From Corallococcus sp. CA049B (GTDB lineage: Bacteria; Myxococcota; Myxococcia; Myxococcales; Myxococcaceae), in assembly GCF_003611685.1 (NCBI RefSeq), contig NZ_RAWC01000041.1:1-53140 (forward strand): 53,140 nt of DNA. The letters run 5' to 3'. The position numbers were made by a program, and so were the translations under genes. The notes beneath the pieces were generated by a model. The model did not search any database. It was not told the origin of the DNA and was given only the letters and a program-made list of their open reading frames with translations. Shown here one piece after another: positions 20,287 to 35,582 of the stretch. Position 1 is the stretch's first letter, and each line of letters opens with the position of its first letter.

Positions 20287-21404
20287 TCCAGTCCTCCCAG
20301 GACGCGGGTGTTGGTGGCGGCACGCCAGGTGACGGTGCGCGACAAAGGCGACAGGTCCAGGCCATTCGCGAGCACTCGCTCCGCCGCCGCCGTGGCCATC
20401 GTCGTCGCGAGCAAAGACCCAGGACAGGCATGCGAGCCCAGGCCGAAGGTGAAGCTCTTGCGCCCCGCGCGCCGTGGAAGGAAGGCGTCGGGCTGGGGAT
20501 TCTCCAGGGGATCCCGATTCGCGGCGGCGAGCACGACGACCACGGTCTCACCGGCTTCCAGCGCCTGACCCGCGACGACCGCGGCGGCATGGGTGAAGCG
20601 CCGTGTGTTCTGGACCGGGGAATCGTGACGAGCTGCTTCCTGGACCACGTCGTCCATCGTGCAGGTACCCCGTGAGAGCTGTTCACGCAGCTCGGGCATG
20701 CGAGCGAAGGCCCGCAGCGTCGCGCCCAGAAGACCGGCCGTCGCTTCATACGCCTGGGTGAGCAGGCCCACGGTGTTGGGAACGAGCAGGTCCTCCGGGC
20801 CGTGGCCTTCCATCAGCCGGGCCGTGAACGCGGTCCTCGCCGTGGACCGGAAACAGGCCGCCACGCGTTCGTGCAGCCTCGCCGCCCCCTTGCTGCCAGC
20901 AGGGGACCCGGCGACCGAGCGGACATAGGCATCCACATCCCGCACGCTCGCCTCCAGCGTGTCTTCTGGGAAGCCGAGCAGCGACCCCAGCACGAACACG
21001 GGAAGCTGGAGGGCGGCGTCCGGCAGCCGTGACAGCGAGGGCGTCGAGAACAACCGTGTCGCCTGGCGGCGGCTCTCCGCTTCGACCTCCCGCAGCGCCA
21101 ACGGCAGCGCACTTGAAAGTGTCTGCTTCACGGCGGGGTAGGGGCCACCGTCGTTCATCCGCACCAGCCGTCCAAAAAGGGCCCCCGCGGCGGTGCCCGC
21201 CAGGTGCGGAGGCACTGGCTCCGACCGTGGCCGGACCCGGCAGTGCTCGCTCGTGAGCACCGCGCGGACGGTGGCCGCATCCGCCGCGATCCATGGCCCG
21301 AAGCCGGGGACGCGGTGCAGGCCGCCCCGGGCTCGAAGCTCCGAGTAGTAGGGGTAGGGGTCGGGGTGGGTGACGGCTTGATACGGGTCGGTCGGCGGTG
21401 TCAT
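20283..21404 (-). CDS. Cytochrome P450
   Basis: The heme-thiolate signature FGLGSHACPGSLLA is present, as is the ExxR motif (EAARHDSP). The start is the internal ATG at 21404 (MTPPTDPYQAV...). Confidence 0.8.
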   Translation of the reverse strand: MTPPTDPYQAVTHPDPYPYYSELRARGGLHRVPGFGPWIAADAATVRAVLTSEHCRVRPRSEPVPPHLAGTAAGALFGRLVRMNDGGPYPAVKQTLSSALPLALREVEAESRRQATRLFSTPSLSRLPDAALQLPVFVLGSLLGFPEDTLEASVRDVDAYVRSVAGSPAGSKGAARLHERVAACFRSTARTAFTARLMEGHGPEDLLVPNTVGLLTQAYEATAGLLGATLRAFARMPELREQLSRGTCTMDDVVQEAARHDSPVQNTRRFTHAAAVVAGQALEAGETVVVVLAAANRDPLENPQPDAFLPRRAGRKSFTFGLGSHACPGSLLATTMATAAAERVLANGLDLSPLSRTVTWRAATNTRVLGGLE

Positions 21405-21467
21405 CGGTCCTCGTGGCCGGGCACTCTGCCGCCGTTGCCGTGTCCGTGTGCTAGGAAATGGTTCGTC

Positions 21468-22151
21468 ATGGACCGAACGATGAATGCAGGGCCGGACCTC
21501 GCGACGCTGGCCACGGCCGTGGGGGATGCCACGCGGATCCGGATGCTGGAGTTGCTCATGGAGGGCCGGGCGCTCGTCGCGAAGGAGCTCGCGTTCGGTA
21601 CGGGCGTCAGCCCCGCGACGGCGACCGCGCACCTCCAGCGGTTGGAGCAGGCCCGGCTGGTCCGCGCCACCCGTCAGGGGCGCAACAAGGTGTTCCGGAT
21701 CGCCACGCCCACCGTGGCGCGGATGGTGGAGGCGCTGATGACCGTGGCGGTCCGGGGCCCCCGAGCGTCAGCGACTCCGGAGCCCCTGAGGGCCGCGCGC
21801 TACTGCTACGACCATCTGGCGGGCAGACTTGGCATGGGCATCACCGACGCGCTCCTGCGGGCCGGGCACCTGTCCCTTCGCAAGCGCGCGTTCGCGCTCA
21901 CCCCGAGCGGCGAGGCGTGGTTCCAGGACTTCGGCATCGACCTGGCGCCCGTGCGCGAACAGCGGCGCCACTTCGCCCACCGGTGCCTGGACTGGAGTGA
22001 GCGGCGCGATCACCTCGCGGGGGCGCTGGGCGCGGCGCTCGCGGCCCGGGTGTTCGCATTGGGATGGGTGGAGCGTCAGCCCGACTCACGCGGCCTCATC
22101 GTGACGCCTGGAGGCCAGCGGGGGCTCAAGCGTCACTTTGGCGTGCTGTAG
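21468..22151 (+). CDS. ArsR/SmtB-family winged-helix transcriptional regulator, divergent from the P450 gene
   Basis: The HTH is ATLATAVGDATRIRMLELLMEGRALVAKELAFGTGVSPATATAHLQRLEQARLV. The start is the ATG at 21468, inside a longer GTG-started ORF. Confidence 0.75.
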   Translation: MDRTMNAGPDLATLATAVGDATRIRMLELLMEGRALVAKELAFGTGVSPATATAHLQRLEQARLVRATRQGRNKVFRIATPTVARMVEALMTVAVRGPRASATPEPLRAARYCYDHLAGRLGMGITDALLRAGHLSLRKRAFALTPSGEAWFQDFGIDLAPVREQRRHFAHRCLDWSERRDHLAGALGAALAARVFALGWVERQPDSRGLIVTPGGQRGLKRHFGVL

Positions 22152-22984
22152 GCCGCGGCGTTCGCGTCCGCGCGCTCGCGGGTGCGCTGGATGGCGACGG
22201 AGACTGCTTCGCCCACGACGCGAGTCAGACCGTGGGCGTCCATCGCCTTCAGCCCTGCCTCGGTGATGCCTCCCGGGGTCGCGATCTCCGTGATGAGGCG
22301 AGGGGTGGTGGCGCCGGGTTCGGCCAGCAGCTTCGCCGCGCCAATGAGCGTTTCCCTGGCGAGCGCCTCCGCTTCCGCCGCGTCCATCCCGTGCGCCATC
22401 GCGGCCTGGGCCAGGGTCTCCACGAAGCGGAAGACATAAGCGGGGCCCGTGCCGCACACCCCCGTGCAGACCGTGAGCGCCTCCTCGGTCATCCACATGG
22501 GCCGTCCCGTCGCCGCGAAGACGGACTCGGTGGCCAGCCTTGAGGTCTCCGTTGCCCGGGTCCCGGCCGTCAGTGGCGTCACGCCCGCTCCCACGCGCAC
22601 GGGCGTATGGGGCAGGGCGCGGATGACGGAGACGCAGGAGGGCAGCGCCGCTTCCAGCTGCGCGAGGCGCACGTCCGCGGACAGCGACACCACCGTCTGC
22701 CCGGGTTCCAGAGCCGGCGAGATGACCTCCATCAGCTCGCGCAATTGTGCCTGCCGCACCGCCAGCAGGACCACCCCCGCGCCCCGCACCGCCTGCGCGT
22801 TGTCCATGAGGACGTTCACGCCGTGCCGGGAGCGCAGCTCCTCTCCGCGCTCGGGCCGGCGCACCGTGACGCGAAGGTCCGAAGGACGCACGTGGCCGGA
22901 GCGCAACAGTCCCAGGATGAGCGCTTCAGCGATCTTGCCGCCTCCCAGGAGGACTACGGGAGCAGAGATGGAATGGGACGCCAT
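22133..22984 (-). CDS. proC: Pyrroline-5-carboxylate reductase
   Basis: An N-terminal NAD(P)-binding motif (VVLLGGGKIAEAL) is followed by the CGTGPAYVF and TPGGITEAG motifs. Confidence 0.85.
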   Translation of the reverse strand: MASHSISAPVVLLGGGKIAEALILGLLRSGHVRPSDLRVTVRRPERGEELRSRHGVNVLMDNAQAVRGAGVVLLAVRQAQLRELMEVISPALEPGQTVVSLSADVRLAQLEAALPSCVSVIRALPHTPVRVGAGVTPLTAGTRATETSRLATESVFAATGRPMWMTEEALTVCTGVCGTGPAYVFRFVETLAQAAMAHGMDAAEAEALARETLIGAAKLLAEPGATTPRLITEIATPGGITEAGLKAMDAHGLTRVVGEAVSVAIQRTRERADANAAAYSTPK

Positions 22985-23094
22985 CGCTAGAGCCTACCCT
23001 CAAGCGGGCCGCCAGGAGTTCGCCAACAAGGTCCGCCTTCGAGGGTGCAGCGATGTGGCTCGATTGGATGCAGGAGCGGAGGGCAGGTCGGGCC

Positions 23095-23412
23095 CGGAAC
23101 GCTCAGAACCTGTCCGACAGTCGGACAGGATTCGCGGCAAGCAGTCCGAGGCCACGCCAGTCCACCAGGTCAGCGACGTCATGCGTGCGCGAGCGCAAGG
23201 TCGTGACACGGGGAGAGGGGCCGCCCGGGTCCGGTTCGCTCAAAACCTGTCCGACAGTCGGACAGCTTTTCGAAGCATGCGGTCCGAGGTCGCGCTGGGC
23301 CGTCGGTCGAGCAATGTCATGCGTGCGTGAACTCCAGGGATGGACTCGGACAGAGGCACCCGCCTGGGACGGGTTCCCTCAAAACCTGTCCGACAGTCGG
23401 ACAGGTTTCAGA
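23095..23412. repeat. Three tandem roughly 138-bp repeats, each containing the near-perfect palindrome CTGTCCGAC-A-GTCGGACAG
   Basis: The palindromes lie at 23110-23128, 23247-23265 and 23386-23404. Each is preceded by (c/g)ctcaRaac and followed about 60 nt later by a gtcatgcgtgcg-like box. The array sits in the roughly 750-bp non-coding gap between proC and the DUF481 gene. Confidence 0.8.
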
Positions 23413-23735
23413 CACCTGAGGCCCGGGGGCCGCGCTGGCCGACGGACGATGCGGACGGTGGGCCTTCGCGCTCATGTCAGACCCCAGTGGTTGGATGGCC
23501 ATGCTGGGACGAGGAGGGGACGGGGATGGGGAAAGCGAAGCTGACGCGTCTCTATGACGTTTGTCGGGACACGGCGCACGAGGCGCTGCGGTGGCTTGCT
23601 GCGCGGGACCTTGGGGGCCAGTGCCCCAAGAACAATTCTCGCGCTGTGACAGTGGATGCGTCGTCGACGGAGGAGATGCGTCCTCCCGCGCCTTGTTTGC
23701 GCGCCCGATGCGTCAACGCGCTGCTTGCCGCCCAC

Positions 23736-24512
23736 TCAAAACTTCACTCCCACCGTGGTGCGCAGCTGCGTGTCCAGGGGCGGCACCGTCGCGGGCGGTG
23801 CGCTGTCGTAGGTGAGGTTGAAGCCGATGCCCACCGTGACGCGGGGATTGGGCGTCACCGCGAAGATCGTCTCGTTGAGCACGCGCAGGTCGGAGGGGCG
23901 GGTGACTCGCGGCTGGAAGTAGACCGTCTCCACGAGGTCGATGTTCTCCATCAGCTTCACCCGGGCCAGCAGATAGCTGGAGACTCGCGGATCCATGTAG
24001 CGGTCCCCCGCGTCCGGCTCGCCGTCCTTGCGCAGCCGCTCGTACTCCAGCATCAGCGCCACCCCGAAGGTGAACCCCAATCGGGTCTCATTGAGCAGGA
24101 TGAAGCGCGGACCCGCGCCCAGCAGGGCCCGGAACTGGAGCCGGCGGAACTCGTTGTATTCGTGCTGCGCGAAGACCTCGCCCGACACCGTGTCCGTGAA
24201 CTTTCGCCGGTAGCGCACGTGCTCCAGCACCTGGCTGACGATGCGCTCGCCACTGGCGAACGAATATTCACCCCGGATGACGCCCAGCCAGACGTCTCGC
24301 TCGGAGCGCAGCTGGCCCACCAGCGAGCCCCGGATGGCGAACAGCTCCGTGCTGCCCGTGCGCCAGTCGCCCCCGAGTTCGATGGCAGCGGCCGGCCCCG
24401 GCTCCGCCTTCTCGTCGAAGAGCGCCTGCACGTTGACGATCTGCGCCGCCGCGCCGCTCGCGTGGAGCAACGCCACCAGCACCACCCACGCACCCGACTT
24501 CAGGAGATTCAT
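23736..24512 (-). CDS. DUF481-family outer-membrane beta-barrel protein (YdiY-like)
   Basis: The signal peptide is MNLLKSGAWVVLVALLHASGAAAQ. The sequence has alternating amphipathic beta-strand character and ends in a C-terminal Phe. Confidence 0.6.
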   Translation of the reverse strand: MNLLKSGAWVVLVALLHASGAAAQIVNVQALFDEKAEPGPAAAIELGGDWRTGSTELFAIRGSLVGQLRSERDVWLGVIRGEYSFASGERIVSQVLEHVRYRRKFTDTVSGEVFAQHEYNEFRRLQFRALLGAGPRFILLNETRLGFTFGVALMLEYERLRKDGEPDAGDRYMDPRVSSYLLARVKLMENIDLVETVYFQPRVTRPSDLRVLNETIFAVTPNPRVTVGIGFNLTYDSAPPATVPPLDTQLRTTVGVKF

Positions 24513-24654
24513 GCATCTTGCTGTGCCTGCTCGCGCGCTCTCGTTCAACCTTGTTGTGGGGGCTCCGGTGCGTCGGGCCAGCGCTTGACGCCGGCGGTGG
24601 CGCGGAGCATGCCTGCGACGTTCCCCTGGCCCTTGCCCTGTCCGGAGTCCGCCC

Positions 24655-25542
24655 ATGCAGGTTCACATCATCGATGCCTTCACCCGCACTGCCGGTGCAG
24701 GAAACCGCGCGGGCGTGGTGCTCGACGCTGCGGCGCTGGAGGTCCCCACGATGCAGCGGACCGCCGCGGCCGTCAGCGCGTCGGAGACCGCGTTCCTGCT
24801 GTCCCGGCCCGGCGACGCCACCGTGCGCCTGCGCTACTTCACGCCCGTGGACGAGATTCCCTTCTGCGGCCATGCCACGGTGGCCACCTTCCACCTGCTC
24901 GCGGAGAAGGGGCTCCTGCGAAGCCCGGGGACGTACACGCTGGAGTGCCCCGGTGGCACGTTCAGCATCGAGCTGGAGCCCCAGGGCACGCGCGGGACTC
25001 GGGTGTGGATCACCACGCCCCCGCCGCCCGCGCAGCCCAACCCCGTGGCCCTGGACGCACTGATGGCCACGCTGGGCGGGACCGCGTCGCAGGTGGAGCC
25101 GTCGCTGCCGGTCATCCGCCAGGGCCACCGGCTGGTGGTGCCCCTCCGGCGGCTCGCGGACCTGGAGGCCCTGACGCCGCGAGGCGCGGCGATGAACGCG
25201 CTGCTGATGCCGCACGGCTTGCGCGGCGTCTACCTCTTCACCCGCGAAGCGAAGGAGGAGGGGAGCGTGGCCCAGGCGCGCTACTTCGTCCCGGGCTTCG
25301 GCATCCTGGAGGACCCCGTGACGGGCTCCGCCGCGGGACCGCTCGCGGCCTGGCTCGCCGAGCACGGGAGCCTTCGCCTGCCGGAGCACGGCGGCACGGT
25401 GTCGAGCCGCATCGAACAGGGCGACACGCTCGGCAAGCCGGGCCGAATCGACATCCAGGTCACCGGCCGGCCAGGCCACATCGAACGCGCTCGCGTTGGC
25501 GGGGTGGCCCTCACCGTGATGGACGCCACGCTGCTCGCGTAG
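24655..25542 (+). CDS. PhzF-family phenazine-biosynthesis-like isomerase
   Basis: The start is MQVHIIDAFT...GNRAGVV. FCGHATVA is present, as is the second-half motif YFVPGFGILEDPVTGSAAGPLAAWL. Confidence 0.8.
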   Translation: MQVHIIDAFTRTAGAGNRAGVVLDAAALEVPTMQRTAAAVSASETAFLLSRPGDATVRLRYFTPVDEIPFCGHATVATFHLLAEKGLLRSPGTYTLECPGGTFSIELEPQGTRGTRVWITTPPPPAQPNPVALDALMATLGGTASQVEPSLPVIRQGHRLVVPLRRLADLEALTPRGAAMNALLMPHGLRGVYLFTREAKEEGSVAQARYFVPGFGILEDPVTGSAAGPLAAWLAEHGSLRLPEHGGTVSSRIEQGDTLGKPGRIDIQVTGRPGHIERARVGGVALTVMDATLLA

Positions 25543-31806: not shown

Positions 31807-33399
31807 TCATTCGAGCCAGACCCGGACACGCCGGGGGCCCTCGTCCAGGTGGAACAGCTCCGACGGCCGCAGCCCCGCCGCGACCGCCGCGATCCCCATG
31901 GCCGCCGCATCCAAGCCCCGCGCCGCCAGCTTGCGAGGCAGGTCCTCCGGGAGCAGGTCCTCCAGGTGCGCCGCCACGTCCGCGCGGAAGGTCAGCGCGA
32001 CGCGCGTGTGCCCTCGCTCCGTCACCAGGACCTTCAGGTAGCGCGCGGCGCCCTCCACGCGCGCCTCCGGTGGCGAAGGCGGAGGCGGCAGCGACGGGGC
32101 GCGGGCCTCGTCCAGGAGCGGCCCCCAGGCGATGGGCACGTCCAGCACGTCCAGGTGGCGCACCAGCCCGTGGAACGCGCGCAGGACGAACAGGAGCGAC
32201 GCGGGCCCCGCCGCGCGGAAGTTCCAGCGGTGTGGCCCCAGCGCCTCGGTGAGCCGCTCGCCCAGCCGCCAGCGTCGCGCATGGAAGGGACGGTCCAGGA
32301 GGAAGGGCTCCAGCAGCACGCGGCTGACGGCGGGCAGCGCCTCCGCCATGGGCTCCAGCAGCTCCGGGGCGAAGCCCAGCATCACCCACGCGGACAGGAG
32401 CTGATCCGGGCGCGGCGGCGTGCCCGGACCCTTGAGGAGTGCGAGCAACCGCCCCAGCCCCACGGCCAGCTCCGGCGGCAGCGGCTTCACACAGCCGAAG
32501 TCGAGCACGCCCAGCACGGGCTGTCCGTCCTGTCCCCGCGACACGCGGTAGTTGCCCGGGTGCGGATCCGCGTGGAGCGTTCCCCACGTGAAGCAGCCGT
32601 GGAGGAACAGCCGTACGAGTGTCGTGGACAGCGCGCGGCGGTCCGCTTCGCTCCAGCGCCAGCCCTCCGCGAGCGACGCGCCGTCCACCCAGGTCATCAC
32701 CAGCAGGTCTTCCCGAGTGAGCGAGTCCACCGGCACGGGGACGATGACGCCCGGCACGTCCGCCATGCGCGTGCCCGCGTCCCGCAGGGCCTGGGCCTCG
32801 TGGCGATAGTCCAGCTCGCCCTGGAGCATGCGGGCCAGCTCGTGGCGGTAGGCGGACAGGTCCAGCTTCCCGCGCCAGCCTCCCAGCGGCGCGGCCAGCC
32901 ACCCCAGCGCGCGCAGATCATCCCGCACGGCCTCCGCGATGCCCGGGTGCCGCAGCTTCACCGCCACGGCGCGCCCGTCATGCAGCACGCCCCGGTGCAC
33001 CTGGCCCAGCGACGCGGCGATGCCCACACCCTCCAGCGACTGGAACACCTCCCGCCACGGGCGGCCCAGCCGGCGGGACACCTCCGCCAGCGCGGCCTCC
33101 GGCGCGAGCGGGGAGGGCGCCTCCGCGAGCGAACCGAACCCCGGCGTGTCCGCGCCCAGCTCCGCGAGCGTGAGCACCTGGCCCACCTTCTGGGGCAGCC
33201 CGCGCATCCCCAACAGCCGCTCGGTCAGCTCCCGCTGTGCTCGCTCCGCGTCCTGGGGCCGGGACACCCGCCGCAGGCGCGTGGAGGCACGGGCCACCTG
33301 GCCCAGCGCCCACCACCGCTTCAATCCGGTTCGCACGTGCCGTGGCTCCCTGTGCCTGACGCCGCCCGAGCTACTTCGTCCGCGCCTGCGTGGAGGCAC
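31807..33399 (-). CDS. UbiB/ABC1 (ADCK)-family atypical protein kinase embedded in the che operon. The 5' end is ambiguous because it runs into a tandem duplication.
   Basis: Kinase-like motifs are present: SLGQVHRGVLHDGRAVAVKLRHPGI (the Lys-containing VAVK), the catalytic block HADPHPGNYRV, and DFG (LDFGCV). The listed start is a GTG inside duplicated sequence. Confidence 0.65.
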   Translation of the reverse strand: MPPRRRGRSSSGGVRHREPRHVRTGLKRWWALGQVARASTRLRRVSRPQDAERAQRELTERLLGMRGLPQKVGQVLTLAELGADTPGFGSLAEAPSPLAPEAALAEVSRRLGRPWREVFQSLEGVGIAASLGQVHRGVLHDGRAVAVKLRHPGIAEAVRDDLRALGWLAAPLGGWRGKLDLSAYRHELARMLQGELDYRHEAQALRDAGTRMADVPGVIVPVPVDSLTREDLLVMTWVDGASLAEGWRWSEADRRALSTTLVRLFLHGCFTWGTLHADPHPGNYRVSRGQDGQPVLGVLDFGCVKPLPPELAVGLGRLLALLKGPGTPPRPDQLLSAWVMLGFAPELLEPMAEALPAVSRVLLEPFLLDRPFHARRWRLGERLTEALGPHRWNFRAAGPASLLFVLRAFHGLVRHLDVLDVPIAWGPLLDEARAPSLPPPPSPPEARVEGAARYLKVLVTERGHTRVALTFRADVAAHLEDLLPEDLPRKLAARGLDAAAMGIAAVAAGLRPSELFHLDEGPRRVRVWLE

Positions 33400-33494
33400 G
33401 GGCCACCTGGCCCCGCGCCCACCACCGCTTCAATCCGGTCCGCACGTGCCGTGGCTCCCTGTGCCTGATGCCGTCCGCGCTACTTCGTCCGCGC
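33288..33494. repeat. Tandem direct duplication of two copies of about 100-105 bp, spanning the mcp 3' end and intergenic region and the 5' end of the UbiB-kinase ORF
   Basis: gcgtggaggcacgggccacctggccc.gcgcccaccaccgcttcaatccggt.cgcacgtgccgtggctccctgtgcctga.gccg...gctacttcgtccgcgcc occurs twice with about 93% identity. The second copy contains the true mcp stop codon. The first copy carries a relic of it. Confidence 0.8.
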
Positions 33495-35582
33495 CGGCTT
33501 GTCGGAGGTGTCCACCTGCACGACCAGCCGTTGCAGCGACTGCGCCATGTGGGCCAGCTCCACCGCGGAGCGCTGCGTGCTGCCCGCGCCCTCGGTGGTG
33601 CTGCGCGCGGCCTCCGCCACGGCGGCCATGTTCTCGGAGATTTGCTGGCTGCCCTTGGCGGCCTCGCCCACGTTGCGGAGGATCTCCCCCGCGGTGGCCG
33701 TCTGCTCCTCGACGGAGGAGGCGATGGACGTCTGCAGCTCGTCGATGCGGCTGATGGTGGCGCCGATCTCCAGGATGGCGTTGACCACCTCCTCGGTGTC
33801 GCCCTGGATGGTGCCGATCTTCTGGCCGATGTCCTCCGTGGCGCGGGCCGTCTCGCGCGCCAGCTCCTTCACCTCGTTGGCCACCACCGCGAAGCCCCGG
33901 CCCGCCTCACCGGCGCGCGCCGCCTCGATGGTCGCGTTGAGCGCCAGCAGGTTCGTCTGCTGCGCGATGGAGGTGATGACCTTGATGACCTTGCCGATCT
34001 CCTGGCTGCTCGTCCCCAGCTTGCCGACGACGTTGGACGTGGAGTCCGCGAGCTTCACCGCGGACGCGGCCACCTTGGCGGCGGTGCTCGCGTTGCGCGC
34101 CACCTCGCGGATGTTCGCGTTGACCTCCTCCATGCCGGACGCGACGCTCTGCACGTTGCGGCTGACCTGTTCGGCGCCAGCGGACACCTGCGTGGCCTGC
34201 GCCGCGGTCTCCTGTGCGTTGCTCACCAGCTGCTGGCTGACGCTGGACAGCTCCTGCGACGACGCGGCGAGCGTCTGCGAGTGCTGCGTCACCTCCTGGA
34301 AGATGCCGCGCAGGGTGGTGTCCAGCTCCTGCTCGCGCTGCTGCACGGCGAGCTTGTCCGTGATCAGCTCCCACGTCACCATGGGGCCCAGGTAGCGGCC
34401 CTGGCCGTCGTACACCGCCGTCACCAGCAGGTCCGCGGTCTCCGGGCCAATGGGGATGTTCGCGCGCACCGGCAGGTTCTTGTCGTTGGCCAGGATCTTC
34501 CGCTGGTACGCCACGTCCCGGTGGAAGACGTCGATGTGGGAGCCCAGCACCCGGTCCGCGGCGACGGGCAGGTGCTTCTCCACGCGCTGCAACAGCCGGC
34601 GCGAGGCGGGGTTCAGGTAGATGATCTTCAGGTCCAGGTCCGCCACCATCACGCAGGTAGGGGCGTTCTCCATCATGGCCCTGAGGCGCGCCAACTCCGT
34701 GTCCGTGCGCTGCTGATCCGTGACGTCCGTCCACGTCACCACGTAGCCGGTGAGCGCTCCGCCCCGGCCGGAGATGCCGTCGATGCGCGCCTTGATCAGC
34801 GTGGGGCCCACCGCGAAGTGGGCCTCGTGCGGCAGCGCGGAGGGCTCCAGCAGCCGCTCCTCCTCCAGCCGGAGCTGGTGCTCGAAGTGGGCGAGGAAGT
34901 CGCCGCCCGCGTCCCCCGCGCCGTCGCGGAGGCCGGACGCCTGGTGGATGCGCTCGATGGCCTCCGACGAGGACGCGTTCGAGAAGACGATGGCCAGGTC
35001 CGCGTCCAGGACGAACAGGTTGACGCTCGCCGCGTCCAGCACCGCCTCGCTCAGGGCGCCTTCGAGCGGCGTGGGCGCGCGGCGGCGCGAGGACCGGGCC
35101 GCGGGGGCGGACGCGGCGGCGACCCGGCGTCCCTCCGTCCGGGAGGCACGCGCCGGAGCACGCTTCACGGCGGCGGTCCGCGAGGCGGCCTTCGCCACGG
35201 GCCTGCTCACGCTGTCGCCCTGCGACGAGCCCACGGCCGCCAGCAGCTCGCGGGCGACGGGGCCCGGCACGTCCAGGTCATCCAGCACGGTGGCCAGGTG
35301 TTCGGCGACGCGCCCGAAGTGACGGGGCTTGAGTTCCATGCGCGCGTGCACTTCGCGCATCGACGGGCCCTTGTAGACGCCCGGACCGCCCAGGTGCTGG
35401 GTGAGGAACGCGACCATCTGGCGCTGTAGCTGGAGCATGTCCGCGCGGCGGAAGTAGGGCTTGAGCAGCGCGTCCGTCATCACCCGCGCGTAGAGCTTCT
35501 GCACGGCGGCCGTCAGGGGGGCCTTGCCGCCCAGGCGCTGGAAGAGGGTGGTTTTCACGGCGGGCGCGGTCGGGCGGGCCAT
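33480..35582 (-). CDS. mcp: Soluble methyl-accepting chemotaxis protein with an N-terminal truncated hemoglobin (group I 2/2 Hb) domain and PAS domains
   Basis: The N-terminus [26 protein letters not shown]...[43 protein letters not shown] matches trHbN (mycobacterial ...[25 protein letters not shown]...). PAS-like segments follow. The C-terminus is an MCP signalling domain (...[31 protein letters not shown]...). No transmembrane segment is present. Confidence 0.85.

Follow-up and report, generated by a model that had tools for sequence, protein, structure and literature searches.

The stretch of DNA analysed here (hereafter the window) comprises the 53,140 nucleotides of contig NZ_RAWC01000041.1 of Corallococcus sp. 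CA049B, in which a proC-like gene, encoding a pyrroline-5-carboxylate reductase paralog, and a gene for a DUF481 family protein are separated by a 751-bp gap that carries an array of three palindromes. An earlier note, made from the sequence alone, had described this array and named proC and DUF481 as its neighbours; Pfam confirmed both flanking genes, and the coordinates of the features are collected in Table 1. The exact 19-mer CTGTCCGACAGTCGGACAG occurs three times, with spacings of 137 and 139 bp, where a shuffled sequence predicts 0.05 matches in the 53-kb window, and no further site was found in the window even when up to three mismatches were allowed. Tandem Repeats Finder (TRF) reported a repeat at 23102-23409 with a period of 138, 2.2 copies and 77% matches, and a repeat search of the array returned direct copies of 48-90 nt and palindrome arms of up to 13 bp. 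The exact positions of the 19-mer, the TRF result and the shuffle expectation thus bear out the description of three palindromes in a 137-139-bp tandem array. The conserved context attributed to each unit held in part: the ctcaRaac leader was present in all three units, and the gtcatgcgtgcg box was found in units 1 and 2 (23178-23189 and 23316-23327), whereas unit 3 has only the related gctcatgtcagacc at 23470. The units of the window fold at −29 to −37 kcal/mol (z −2.3 to −3.1), and the 25-mer alone, with arms of 9-13 bp, folds at −16.9 kcal/mol.

It is strongly supported that the gap between DUF481 and proC is a 731-bp insertion (23004-23734) and that this insertion is a decayed member of a cassette family that occurs in multiple copies in Corallococcus. 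Orthologous loci (loci are designated by L and a number) were located through proC homologs and not through the palindrome. In C. caeni (L123, L124) the site is empty, the DUF481 stop codon being followed after 15 nt by the proC ATG, and no palindrome is present; excising positions 23004-23734 and one CTCAA from the window leaves a stop codon, 15 nt and an ATG, which is the C. caeni spacing. In strain EGB (L122) the same site holds ~3 kb, in which the leader and an intact regulator gene (421 aa) accompany a perfect palindrome and seven degenerate palindromes 49-51 bp apart that lie distal to an IS630-like pseudogene. This frameshifted transposase pseudogene (EGB accession CP079946, ~1850-2800 of L122) stands between the distal array and the gene-proximal palindrome and is a secondary insertion in the cassette. 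Strain AB045 (L121) carries a 735-bp relic with two units at the site, where the window carries its 731-bp relic with three. The two cores shared by the window and AB045 are identical at 49 of 50 positions, as against 74% identity in the remaining insert, and this comparison is free of palindrome-selection bias because AB045 was found through proC. A 165-bp gap in GCA_013116625.1 (L130) holds one solo unit with the compensated core CGGTCCGACAGTCGGACCA. This Corallococcus solo unit (2336-2500 of L130, ~150 bp, with a possible CCCT direct repeat) is independent of the insertion in the window, and therefore the spot past the DUF481 stop codon has been taken at least twice by this repeat family. 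The number of units differs among strains, with two in AB045, three in the window and seven in KYC2213. Pyxidicoccus was considered as an outgroup, and its proC locus was not syntenic.

The gap had been regarded as free of genes, which did not hold up: positions 23526-23735 translate to the remnant of a FadR/GntR regulator. By BLASTP, this remnant aligned with residues 32-79 of the intact paralog at the same site in EGB with 52% identity over 48 aa (E 1e-10), and at the nucleotide level positions 23533-23676 matched the 5' coding region of the EGB regulator (L122, 1516-1373). A tblastn search with the intact regulator had missed the remnant, which was revealed by the nucleotide and pairwise protein comparisons. 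The AB045 relic still has regulator residues 5-81.

Table 1. Features of the insertion and its flanking genes in the window (positions as in the 53,140-nt stretch).
Feature	Coordinates	Strand	Remarks
Pyrroline-5-carboxylate reductase paralog (proC-like)	22133..22984	-	Pfam P5CR_dimer, F420_oxidored; closest homolog 95% identical, Corallococcus sp. AB045
Left CTCAA direct repeat, candidate target-site duplication	22999..23003	.	Sequence
Left terminal inverted repeat GCGGGCCGCCAGGAGTTCGCCAAC...	23004..23054	+	Cassette-end profile match 23005-23054(+)
Tandem array	23081..23449	+	Three ~138-bp units, each with an imperfect hairpin (~65 nt) enclosing the palindrome and a linker containing the gtcatgcgtgcg box
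Palindrome 1	23107..23131	.	Exact 19-mer 23110-23128; unit missing from the orthologous AB045 relic
Palindrome 2	23244..23268	.	Exact 19-mer 23247-23265; 19-mer identical in AB045
Palindrome 3	23383..23407	.	Exact 19-mer 23386-23404; perfect 13-bp arms 23382-23408; gene-proximal, centre 131 nt upstream of ATG
Conserved cassette leader …CATGTCAGACCCC…GGTTGGATGG…GGACGAGGAGG with ribosome-binding site	23408..23525	+	Ends at ATG 23526; ~77% identical upstream of FadR/GntR paralogs at at least 13 other loci
FadR/GntR pseudogene, 5' remnant	23526..23686	+	Winged-helix part only; internal 81-nt deletion; effector domain gone
Right terminal inverted repeat …CGTTGACGCATC…	23687..23734	-	Profile match 23734-23687(-); aligns with right ends of L101, L098, L005, L108, L121
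Right CTCAA copy	23735..23739	.	Includes DUF481 stop codon (TCA 23736-23738, + strand)
DUF481 family protein	23736..24656	-	Pfam PF04338; orthologs called as 258 aa

The segment 23347-23532, which contains palindrome 3 and a further 130 nt, is ~77% identical at many loci, and the alignment crosses the ribosome-binding site and the ATG into a conserved open reading frame (ORF). This cassette ORF encodes a GntR-family regulator (PF00392) with weak FadR/NanR-like matches across its helical C-domain. A PF00392 gene adjoins the palindrome at 22 of 118 loci, the sole specific gene family enriched there, and every one of the 28 cassette genes has a palindrome whose centre lies 103-135 nt upstream of its start codon, the corresponding distance in the window being 131 nt; two of the cassettes (L125, L126) were retrieved through the protein and not the palindrome, as was a third (L127), but on a contig already in the palindrome set. 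Tandem units of 138-140 bp also stand upstream of intact cassette genes, seven of them in KYC2213 (L056) and four in DSM 2259 (L125). Complete cassettes measure 1.48 kb (L101) and 1.68 kb (L045), several cassettes have a second palindrome ~155 nt inside the right end, and in intact copies the right inverted repeat overlaps the 3' end of the regulator ORF; solo ends are present at L005, L108 and L117. The only ORF family inside the cassette is PF00392 GntR, so that no transposase is encoded within, and comparison of the cassette with plasmid and phage collections gave no match.

The regulator family is both multiplied and narrowly distributed. At 90% identity it comprises 288 clusters, the best 120 of which are all from Corallococcus, with at least 13 paralogs in SDU142; at 50% identity a search of 1.84 billion representatives gave only ~50 clusters with E 1e-30 or better, all the named ones being from Corallococcus. 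Among the paralogs the recognition helix and wing are nearly invariant, and the effector domain and C-terminal tail are variable. In the alignment of P0002-P0116, the tails past residue ~245 are hypervariable, of low complexity and apparently frame-shifting, and a coding motif (...GFVNELLAT...) is conserved within the right inverted repeat, not always in the annotated frame.

The ends of the insert are imperfect inverted repeats. In L126, L104, L101 and L091 the motif of the left end likewise precedes the palindrome by ~150 nt, and the end profile matched both ends, in inverted orientation, of L045, L101, L121 and the window; elsewhere it matched only ends of FadR/GntR cassettes. These matches included ends outside the training set (L045 both, L015, L053, L104, L121 right). 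The cassette ends appear to resemble Tn3-family repeats (~38 bp ending in ...CGAAG, with a 5-bp duplication). CTCAA stands on both sides of the insert in the window and in AB045, which is only suggestive of a target-site duplication because one independent site is concerned. As an observation on the boundaries, the TGA of a neighbouring gene lies 0-9 nt from the cassette end (…TGAGCAG/GTCGCC…) in L101 (~1416), L098 (~1605), L091 (~4412) and L002 (~3740), and in the window at 23736-23738; this suggests either a preference for insertion at ORF ends or an element end that supplies the stop codon.

The palindrome itself is a dispersed repeat. An exact-match scan for the 19-mer, covering one genome per species, returned at least 120 stretches, and among the matches listed nearly all came from Corallococcus species, the other carriers being an Archangium metagenome-assembled genome (MAG), Hyalangium versicolor and two other myxobacterial MAGs; two matches in Gemmatimonadaceae were set aside as unrelated simple repeats. 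C. exercitus SDU142 has at least 55 exact and at least 110 near-exact copies, and C. coralloides KYC2213 at least 26 and at least 64. The palindrome is clearly neither unique to this locus nor lacking in relatives, and the earlier suggestion of a repeat-element family is borne out by its dispersal. The conserved core extends to AAC-19mer-GTT, with the consensus AAC-CTGTCC...GGACAG-GTT, and since the consensus of the flanks is loosely palindromic and GC-rich, the unit amounts to a hairpin of ~65-70 nt. Copies are intergenic in 116 cases and lie within predicted genes in 15, though coding regions make up ~81% of the sequence. Adjacent copies are most often 68-73 bp apart, with further modes at 81-85, 90-93 and 137-141 bp, and their arrays contain up to 13 units. 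Since the same palindrome is also found outside cassettes, where it behaves like repetitive extragenic palindromic (REP) elements and lies near gene 3' ends, the putative operator and the scattered repeat belong to a single sequence family.

In 143 degenerate copies of the palindrome the mismatches cluster at positions 1, 2, 6, 9, 10, 14, 18 and 19, and G3 T4 C5 / G7 A8 and G11 T12 C13 / G15 A16 C17 hardly vary. Independent switches between C and G are frequent at positions 6 and 14, by which the long stem is broken and each 7-bp GTC-N-GAC box is kept, and deviating pairs are broken in 102 cases and compensated in 4. The two boxes, CTGT-CCG-ACAG and CAGT-CGG-ACAG, fit the palindromic GT-N3-AC (TKGT/ACMA) motif with free central bases; the consensus of the FadR subfamily is TKGT-N3-ACMA (PMC4494728), and the Escherichia coli FadR site reads AGCTGGTCCGACCTATA (PMC4259882). 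The conservation between orthologs, the mismatch spectrum and the type of motif point to recognition by a protein and not to structure.

Taken as a whole, we regard it as probable that the locus is a decayed, transposase-less cassette together with the orphaned operator repeats of its regulator. An intact cassette of ~1.5-1.7 kb consists of a left inverted repeat, ~150 nt, one to seven palindrome units, a leader of ~120 nt and a FadR/GntR gene that extends at its 3' end into the right inverted repeat, often with a second palindrome ~155 nt inside the right end. Such a cassette inserted exactly at the DUF481 stop codon, splitting the DUF481-proC pair that is 15 bp apart when empty, and in the lineage of the window the regulator gene later lost its effector domain. 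The three units are tandem duplicates of the 138-bp upstream segment, and each palindrome, made of two GTC-N-GAC boxes, would be a candidate operator for control of the cassette promoter by the regulator itself. The evidence for protein recognition and the fixed promoter-proximal position in every cassette make such autoregulation appear the most economical mechanism. As the regulator gene next to the array is truncated, only paralogs from other places in the genome could occupy the putative sites of the window, acting in trans. On the minus-strand transcript from DUF481 to proC, three hairpins of −29 to −33 kcal/mol are predicted, each followed by GUUUUGAG or GUUCUGAG, and the hairpins may attenuate read-through into proC, although the terminator scan did not call them; because the short U-runs after them are only GTTTT, GTTCT or CTTTT, they would be weak attenuators at most. 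The earlier proposal of operators for a dimeric transcription factor is thus plausible as to the kind of site but named the wrong gene, since the sites belong upstream of the inserted and decayed FadR/GntR gene, which reads away from proC.

Several observations weigh against this explanation. No transposon with the same inverted ends was present among the 130 loci, no genome-wide search for one having been made, and the complete cassettes L045 and L101 show no flanking direct repeat. Most copies of the palindrome do not adjoin a regulator gene, and arrays of up to 13 units occur without one. The non-cassette copies lie at a median of 79 nt from stop codons versus 160 nt from start codons, which is REP-like, and convergent gaps are over-represented among them (22 of 63); gene calls in the loci came from our own predictor based on GC content at third codon positions (GC3), and most loci were chosen for a perfect 19-mer. 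Among the carriers of the 19-mer in the Archangium MAG, Hyalangium and another myxobacterial MAG, a regulator gene was found in none of the 20 loci examined. Finally, in MAG MFD05674 neighbouring units have the same flank scaffold with other cores, namely TTGTACAC-TTAC-GTGTACAA and CTGTCCAC-TAA-GTGGACAG. These ~70-nt units, whose variant cores also include TGGTTCGATGGTCGGACCA, lie at L113 5620-5900, L019 1880-2060, L027 ~5001 and L107 ~1019, and most of the variant cores again hold boxes of the GT...AC type; the variant cores suggest a wider, modular REP-like superfamily with several core classes.

Some of these observations feed the strongest competing explanation, which accepts the history of the relic but holds that the palindromes are purely elements like REPs and bacterial interspersed mosaic elements (BIMEs), spread and maintained by some enzyme or by gene conversion, and that the FadR-like protein does not bind them. 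The palindromes would then act, if at all, as hairpins or attenuators at mRNA 3' ends, and the copy upstream of the regulator would have been carried along with the expansion of the gene family. Such a view accounts well for the excess of intergenic copies, for the position of non-cassette copies near stop codons and in convergent gaps, for arrays of 69-73-bp units with up to 13 copies and no regulator nearby, for the folding of the units into ~65-nt hairpins, and for the independent solo unit that another lineage has at the same DUF481-proC site. It is at odds with the conservation, which fits two GTC-N-GAC boxes and not a stem, pair 6/14 being freely broken, and with the fixed distance to the regulator start codon in all of the cassettes. 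In addition, no transposase family, of the Y1/REP-associated tyrosine transposase (RAYT) type or any other, was enriched near the copies, the GTAG/CGTC head is absent, and a scan for terminators in the gap was empty. We consider this explanation possible, though less probable than the cassette with its operators; its substantial weight comes from the many copies away from the regulator gene, the occurrence of the 19-mer in genera where the regulator family was not seen, and the variant cores in MFD05674. The two views would be compatible if the regulator family arose in Corallococcus to make use of a repeat already present, or if the dispersed copies descend from cassettes.

A more speculative extension, which we rate as doubtful, is that the FadR-like regulator and the palindrome form a self-propagating pair of protein and site, an analogue of the RAYT-REP pair built on a transcription factor. 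The regulator would bind the sites near both ends and in the arrays, either controlling the cassette or uniting its ends for a transposase acting in trans, and the shed sites would form a genus-specific, fast-changing landscape of binding sites for the paralogs with their hypervariable tails.

That the array is a host operator array for proC is unlikely. On this account the palindromes would be phased operators for a host transcription factor that regulates proC (or DUF481), and we give it very little credence, although the sites lie 123-399 nt upstream of proC, on the side from which its coding strand is read, and spacings of 137 and 139 bp correspond to ~13 helical turns. The empty site of C. 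caeni, where the same gene pair stands 15 bp apart with no palindrome, largely refutes it. Moreover, the array, the leader and the ATG face away from proC and match the upstream region of another gene family, and the number of units varies between close strains. The phasing that the earlier note had seen in the sites is not a property of the family either, its commonest spacing being 68-73 bp.

Still less probable is a reading of every unit as a gene for a small RNA or as a structured RNA acting in cis; a small structured RNA had been among the earlier suggestions. The hairpins are stable on both strands, and tandem small RNA paralogs are known in other bacteria. However, no Rfam family matched at the gathering score in the window, the best E-value in the gap being 4, and the expected covariation was not found, broken pairs far outnumbering compensated ones. 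Within the extended hairpin, ungapped symmetry showed no within-copy excess, and native pairs of flanks were no more stable than chimeric ones (−43.2 versus −44.2 kcal/mol); the long hairpin is therefore a property of the family consensus and not evidence of structural selection. Wobble-type changes were equal on both strands (42 versus 41), and strand-specific G-U tolerance showed a weak bias only (25 versus 12 in co-directional gaps), which was not used. A consensus scan for promoters and terminators found no sites in the gap, with no terminators in 22800-23900, and a promoter in the conserved leader could not be assigned by eye. A degenerate CRISPR array, which the dominant 68-73-bp spacing elsewhere might recall in its resemblance to repeat-plus-spacer periods, was rejected as scarcely credible, since the would-be spacers share homology with one another (identity in L033, similarity in L039 and L050, 77% identity in the window) and the arrays are therefore tandem duplications, and no cas-like family is clustered near them.

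The system shares traits with several known ones and matches none of them fully. REPs typically have a GTAG or CGTC head. Like the REPs, BIMEs and REP doublets (REPINs) of Enterobacteria and Pseudomonas, the Corallococcus elements are short, GC-rich hairpin palindromes in tens to hundreds of copies that are almost always extragenic, often just past stop codons, single or in tandem clusters, and variable in copy number between strains. Unlike them, their consensus lacks such a head, no RAYT (Y1 transposase) was found near the copies, no genome-wide search for RAYTs having been made, the core is made up of two GTC-N-GAC boxes that form a perfect 19-25-mer, the units of an array are repeated directly in tandem, and a regulator-gene cassette has incorporated one subfamily, at a constant distance from the start codon. 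Mobile insertion cassettes (MICs) are passenger genes between inverted repeats of the insertion sequence (IS) or transposon (Tn) type without a transposase, as in the TnXax1-MICs of Xanthomonas (PMC4337579) and the IS231-MICs of B. cereus. The Corallococcus cassette likewise has a passenger gene between inverted ends of ~40-50 bp, no transposase inside, multiple copies, solo ends, and a 5-bp direct repeat at the one site for which an empty allele is at hand; it differs in lacking a cognate transposon among the loci compared and a direct repeat at the two complete cassettes, in a right end that overlaps the passenger ORF, and in its internal arrays of palindromes. With autoregulated FadR-subfamily GntR regulators (PMC4494728, PMC4259882) it shares palindromic GT-N3-AC boxes with a free central base upstream of the regulator's own gene, and a winged-helix N-terminus with a helical FadR-like C-domain. 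In Corallococcus, in contrast, a single perfect palindrome joins two boxes and is repeated in tandem units of 138 bp, with genome-wide copies mostly at gene 3' ends, and each genome encodes at least 13 paralogs of the regulator, whose tails are hypervariable. Finally, intergenic minisatellites such as mycobacterial interspersed repetitive units (MIRUs), and enterobacterial repetitive intergenic consensus (ERIC) elements or intergenic repeat units (IRUs), similarly form tandem repeats of 50-140 bp that separate genes transcribed together and vary in number between strains, whereas the Corallococcus units have a strictly conserved palindromic core and lie in a bounded insertion with a pseudogene. 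No account of the 19-mer, of myxobacterial REPs or miniature inverted-repeat transposable elements (MITEs), or of repetitive DNA of this kind in M. xanthus was found in the searchable literature.

Around the insertion, positions 21204-25542 of the window and the corresponding regions of L121, L123 and L130 hold a conserved cluster of genes in the order HSP20, PhzF, DUF481, proC, ArsR-type helix-turn-helix protein, P450 and ABM monooxygenase, which has the look of a small cluster for accessory metabolism. Apart from Corallococcus, the proC-like paralog was found only in Pyxidicoccus and in a single Myxococcaceae MAG, and the next matches were at most 44% identical and, where named, from actinobacteria. 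Elsewhere in the window, positions 33279-33495 contain a 109-bp tandem duplication (2.0 copies, 95% identical) across the junction of two minus-strand genes (~31807-33324 and 33480-35582), by which the stop codon and the junction region have been copied.

If the explanation of a decayed cassette with operator repeats is correct, Corallococcus would contain a repeat system for which we found no description in the literature, in which a REP-like palindrome with a core resembling a FadR-type operator is tied to a multiplied regulator cassette. This would be a tractable case of a transcription factor and its binding site spreading together and rewiring intergenic regions. For annotation, it would mean that such gaps are relics of insertions and not host regulatory regions, and the 19-mer and the cassette ends would be usable as markers of insertion polymorphism at the level of strains.

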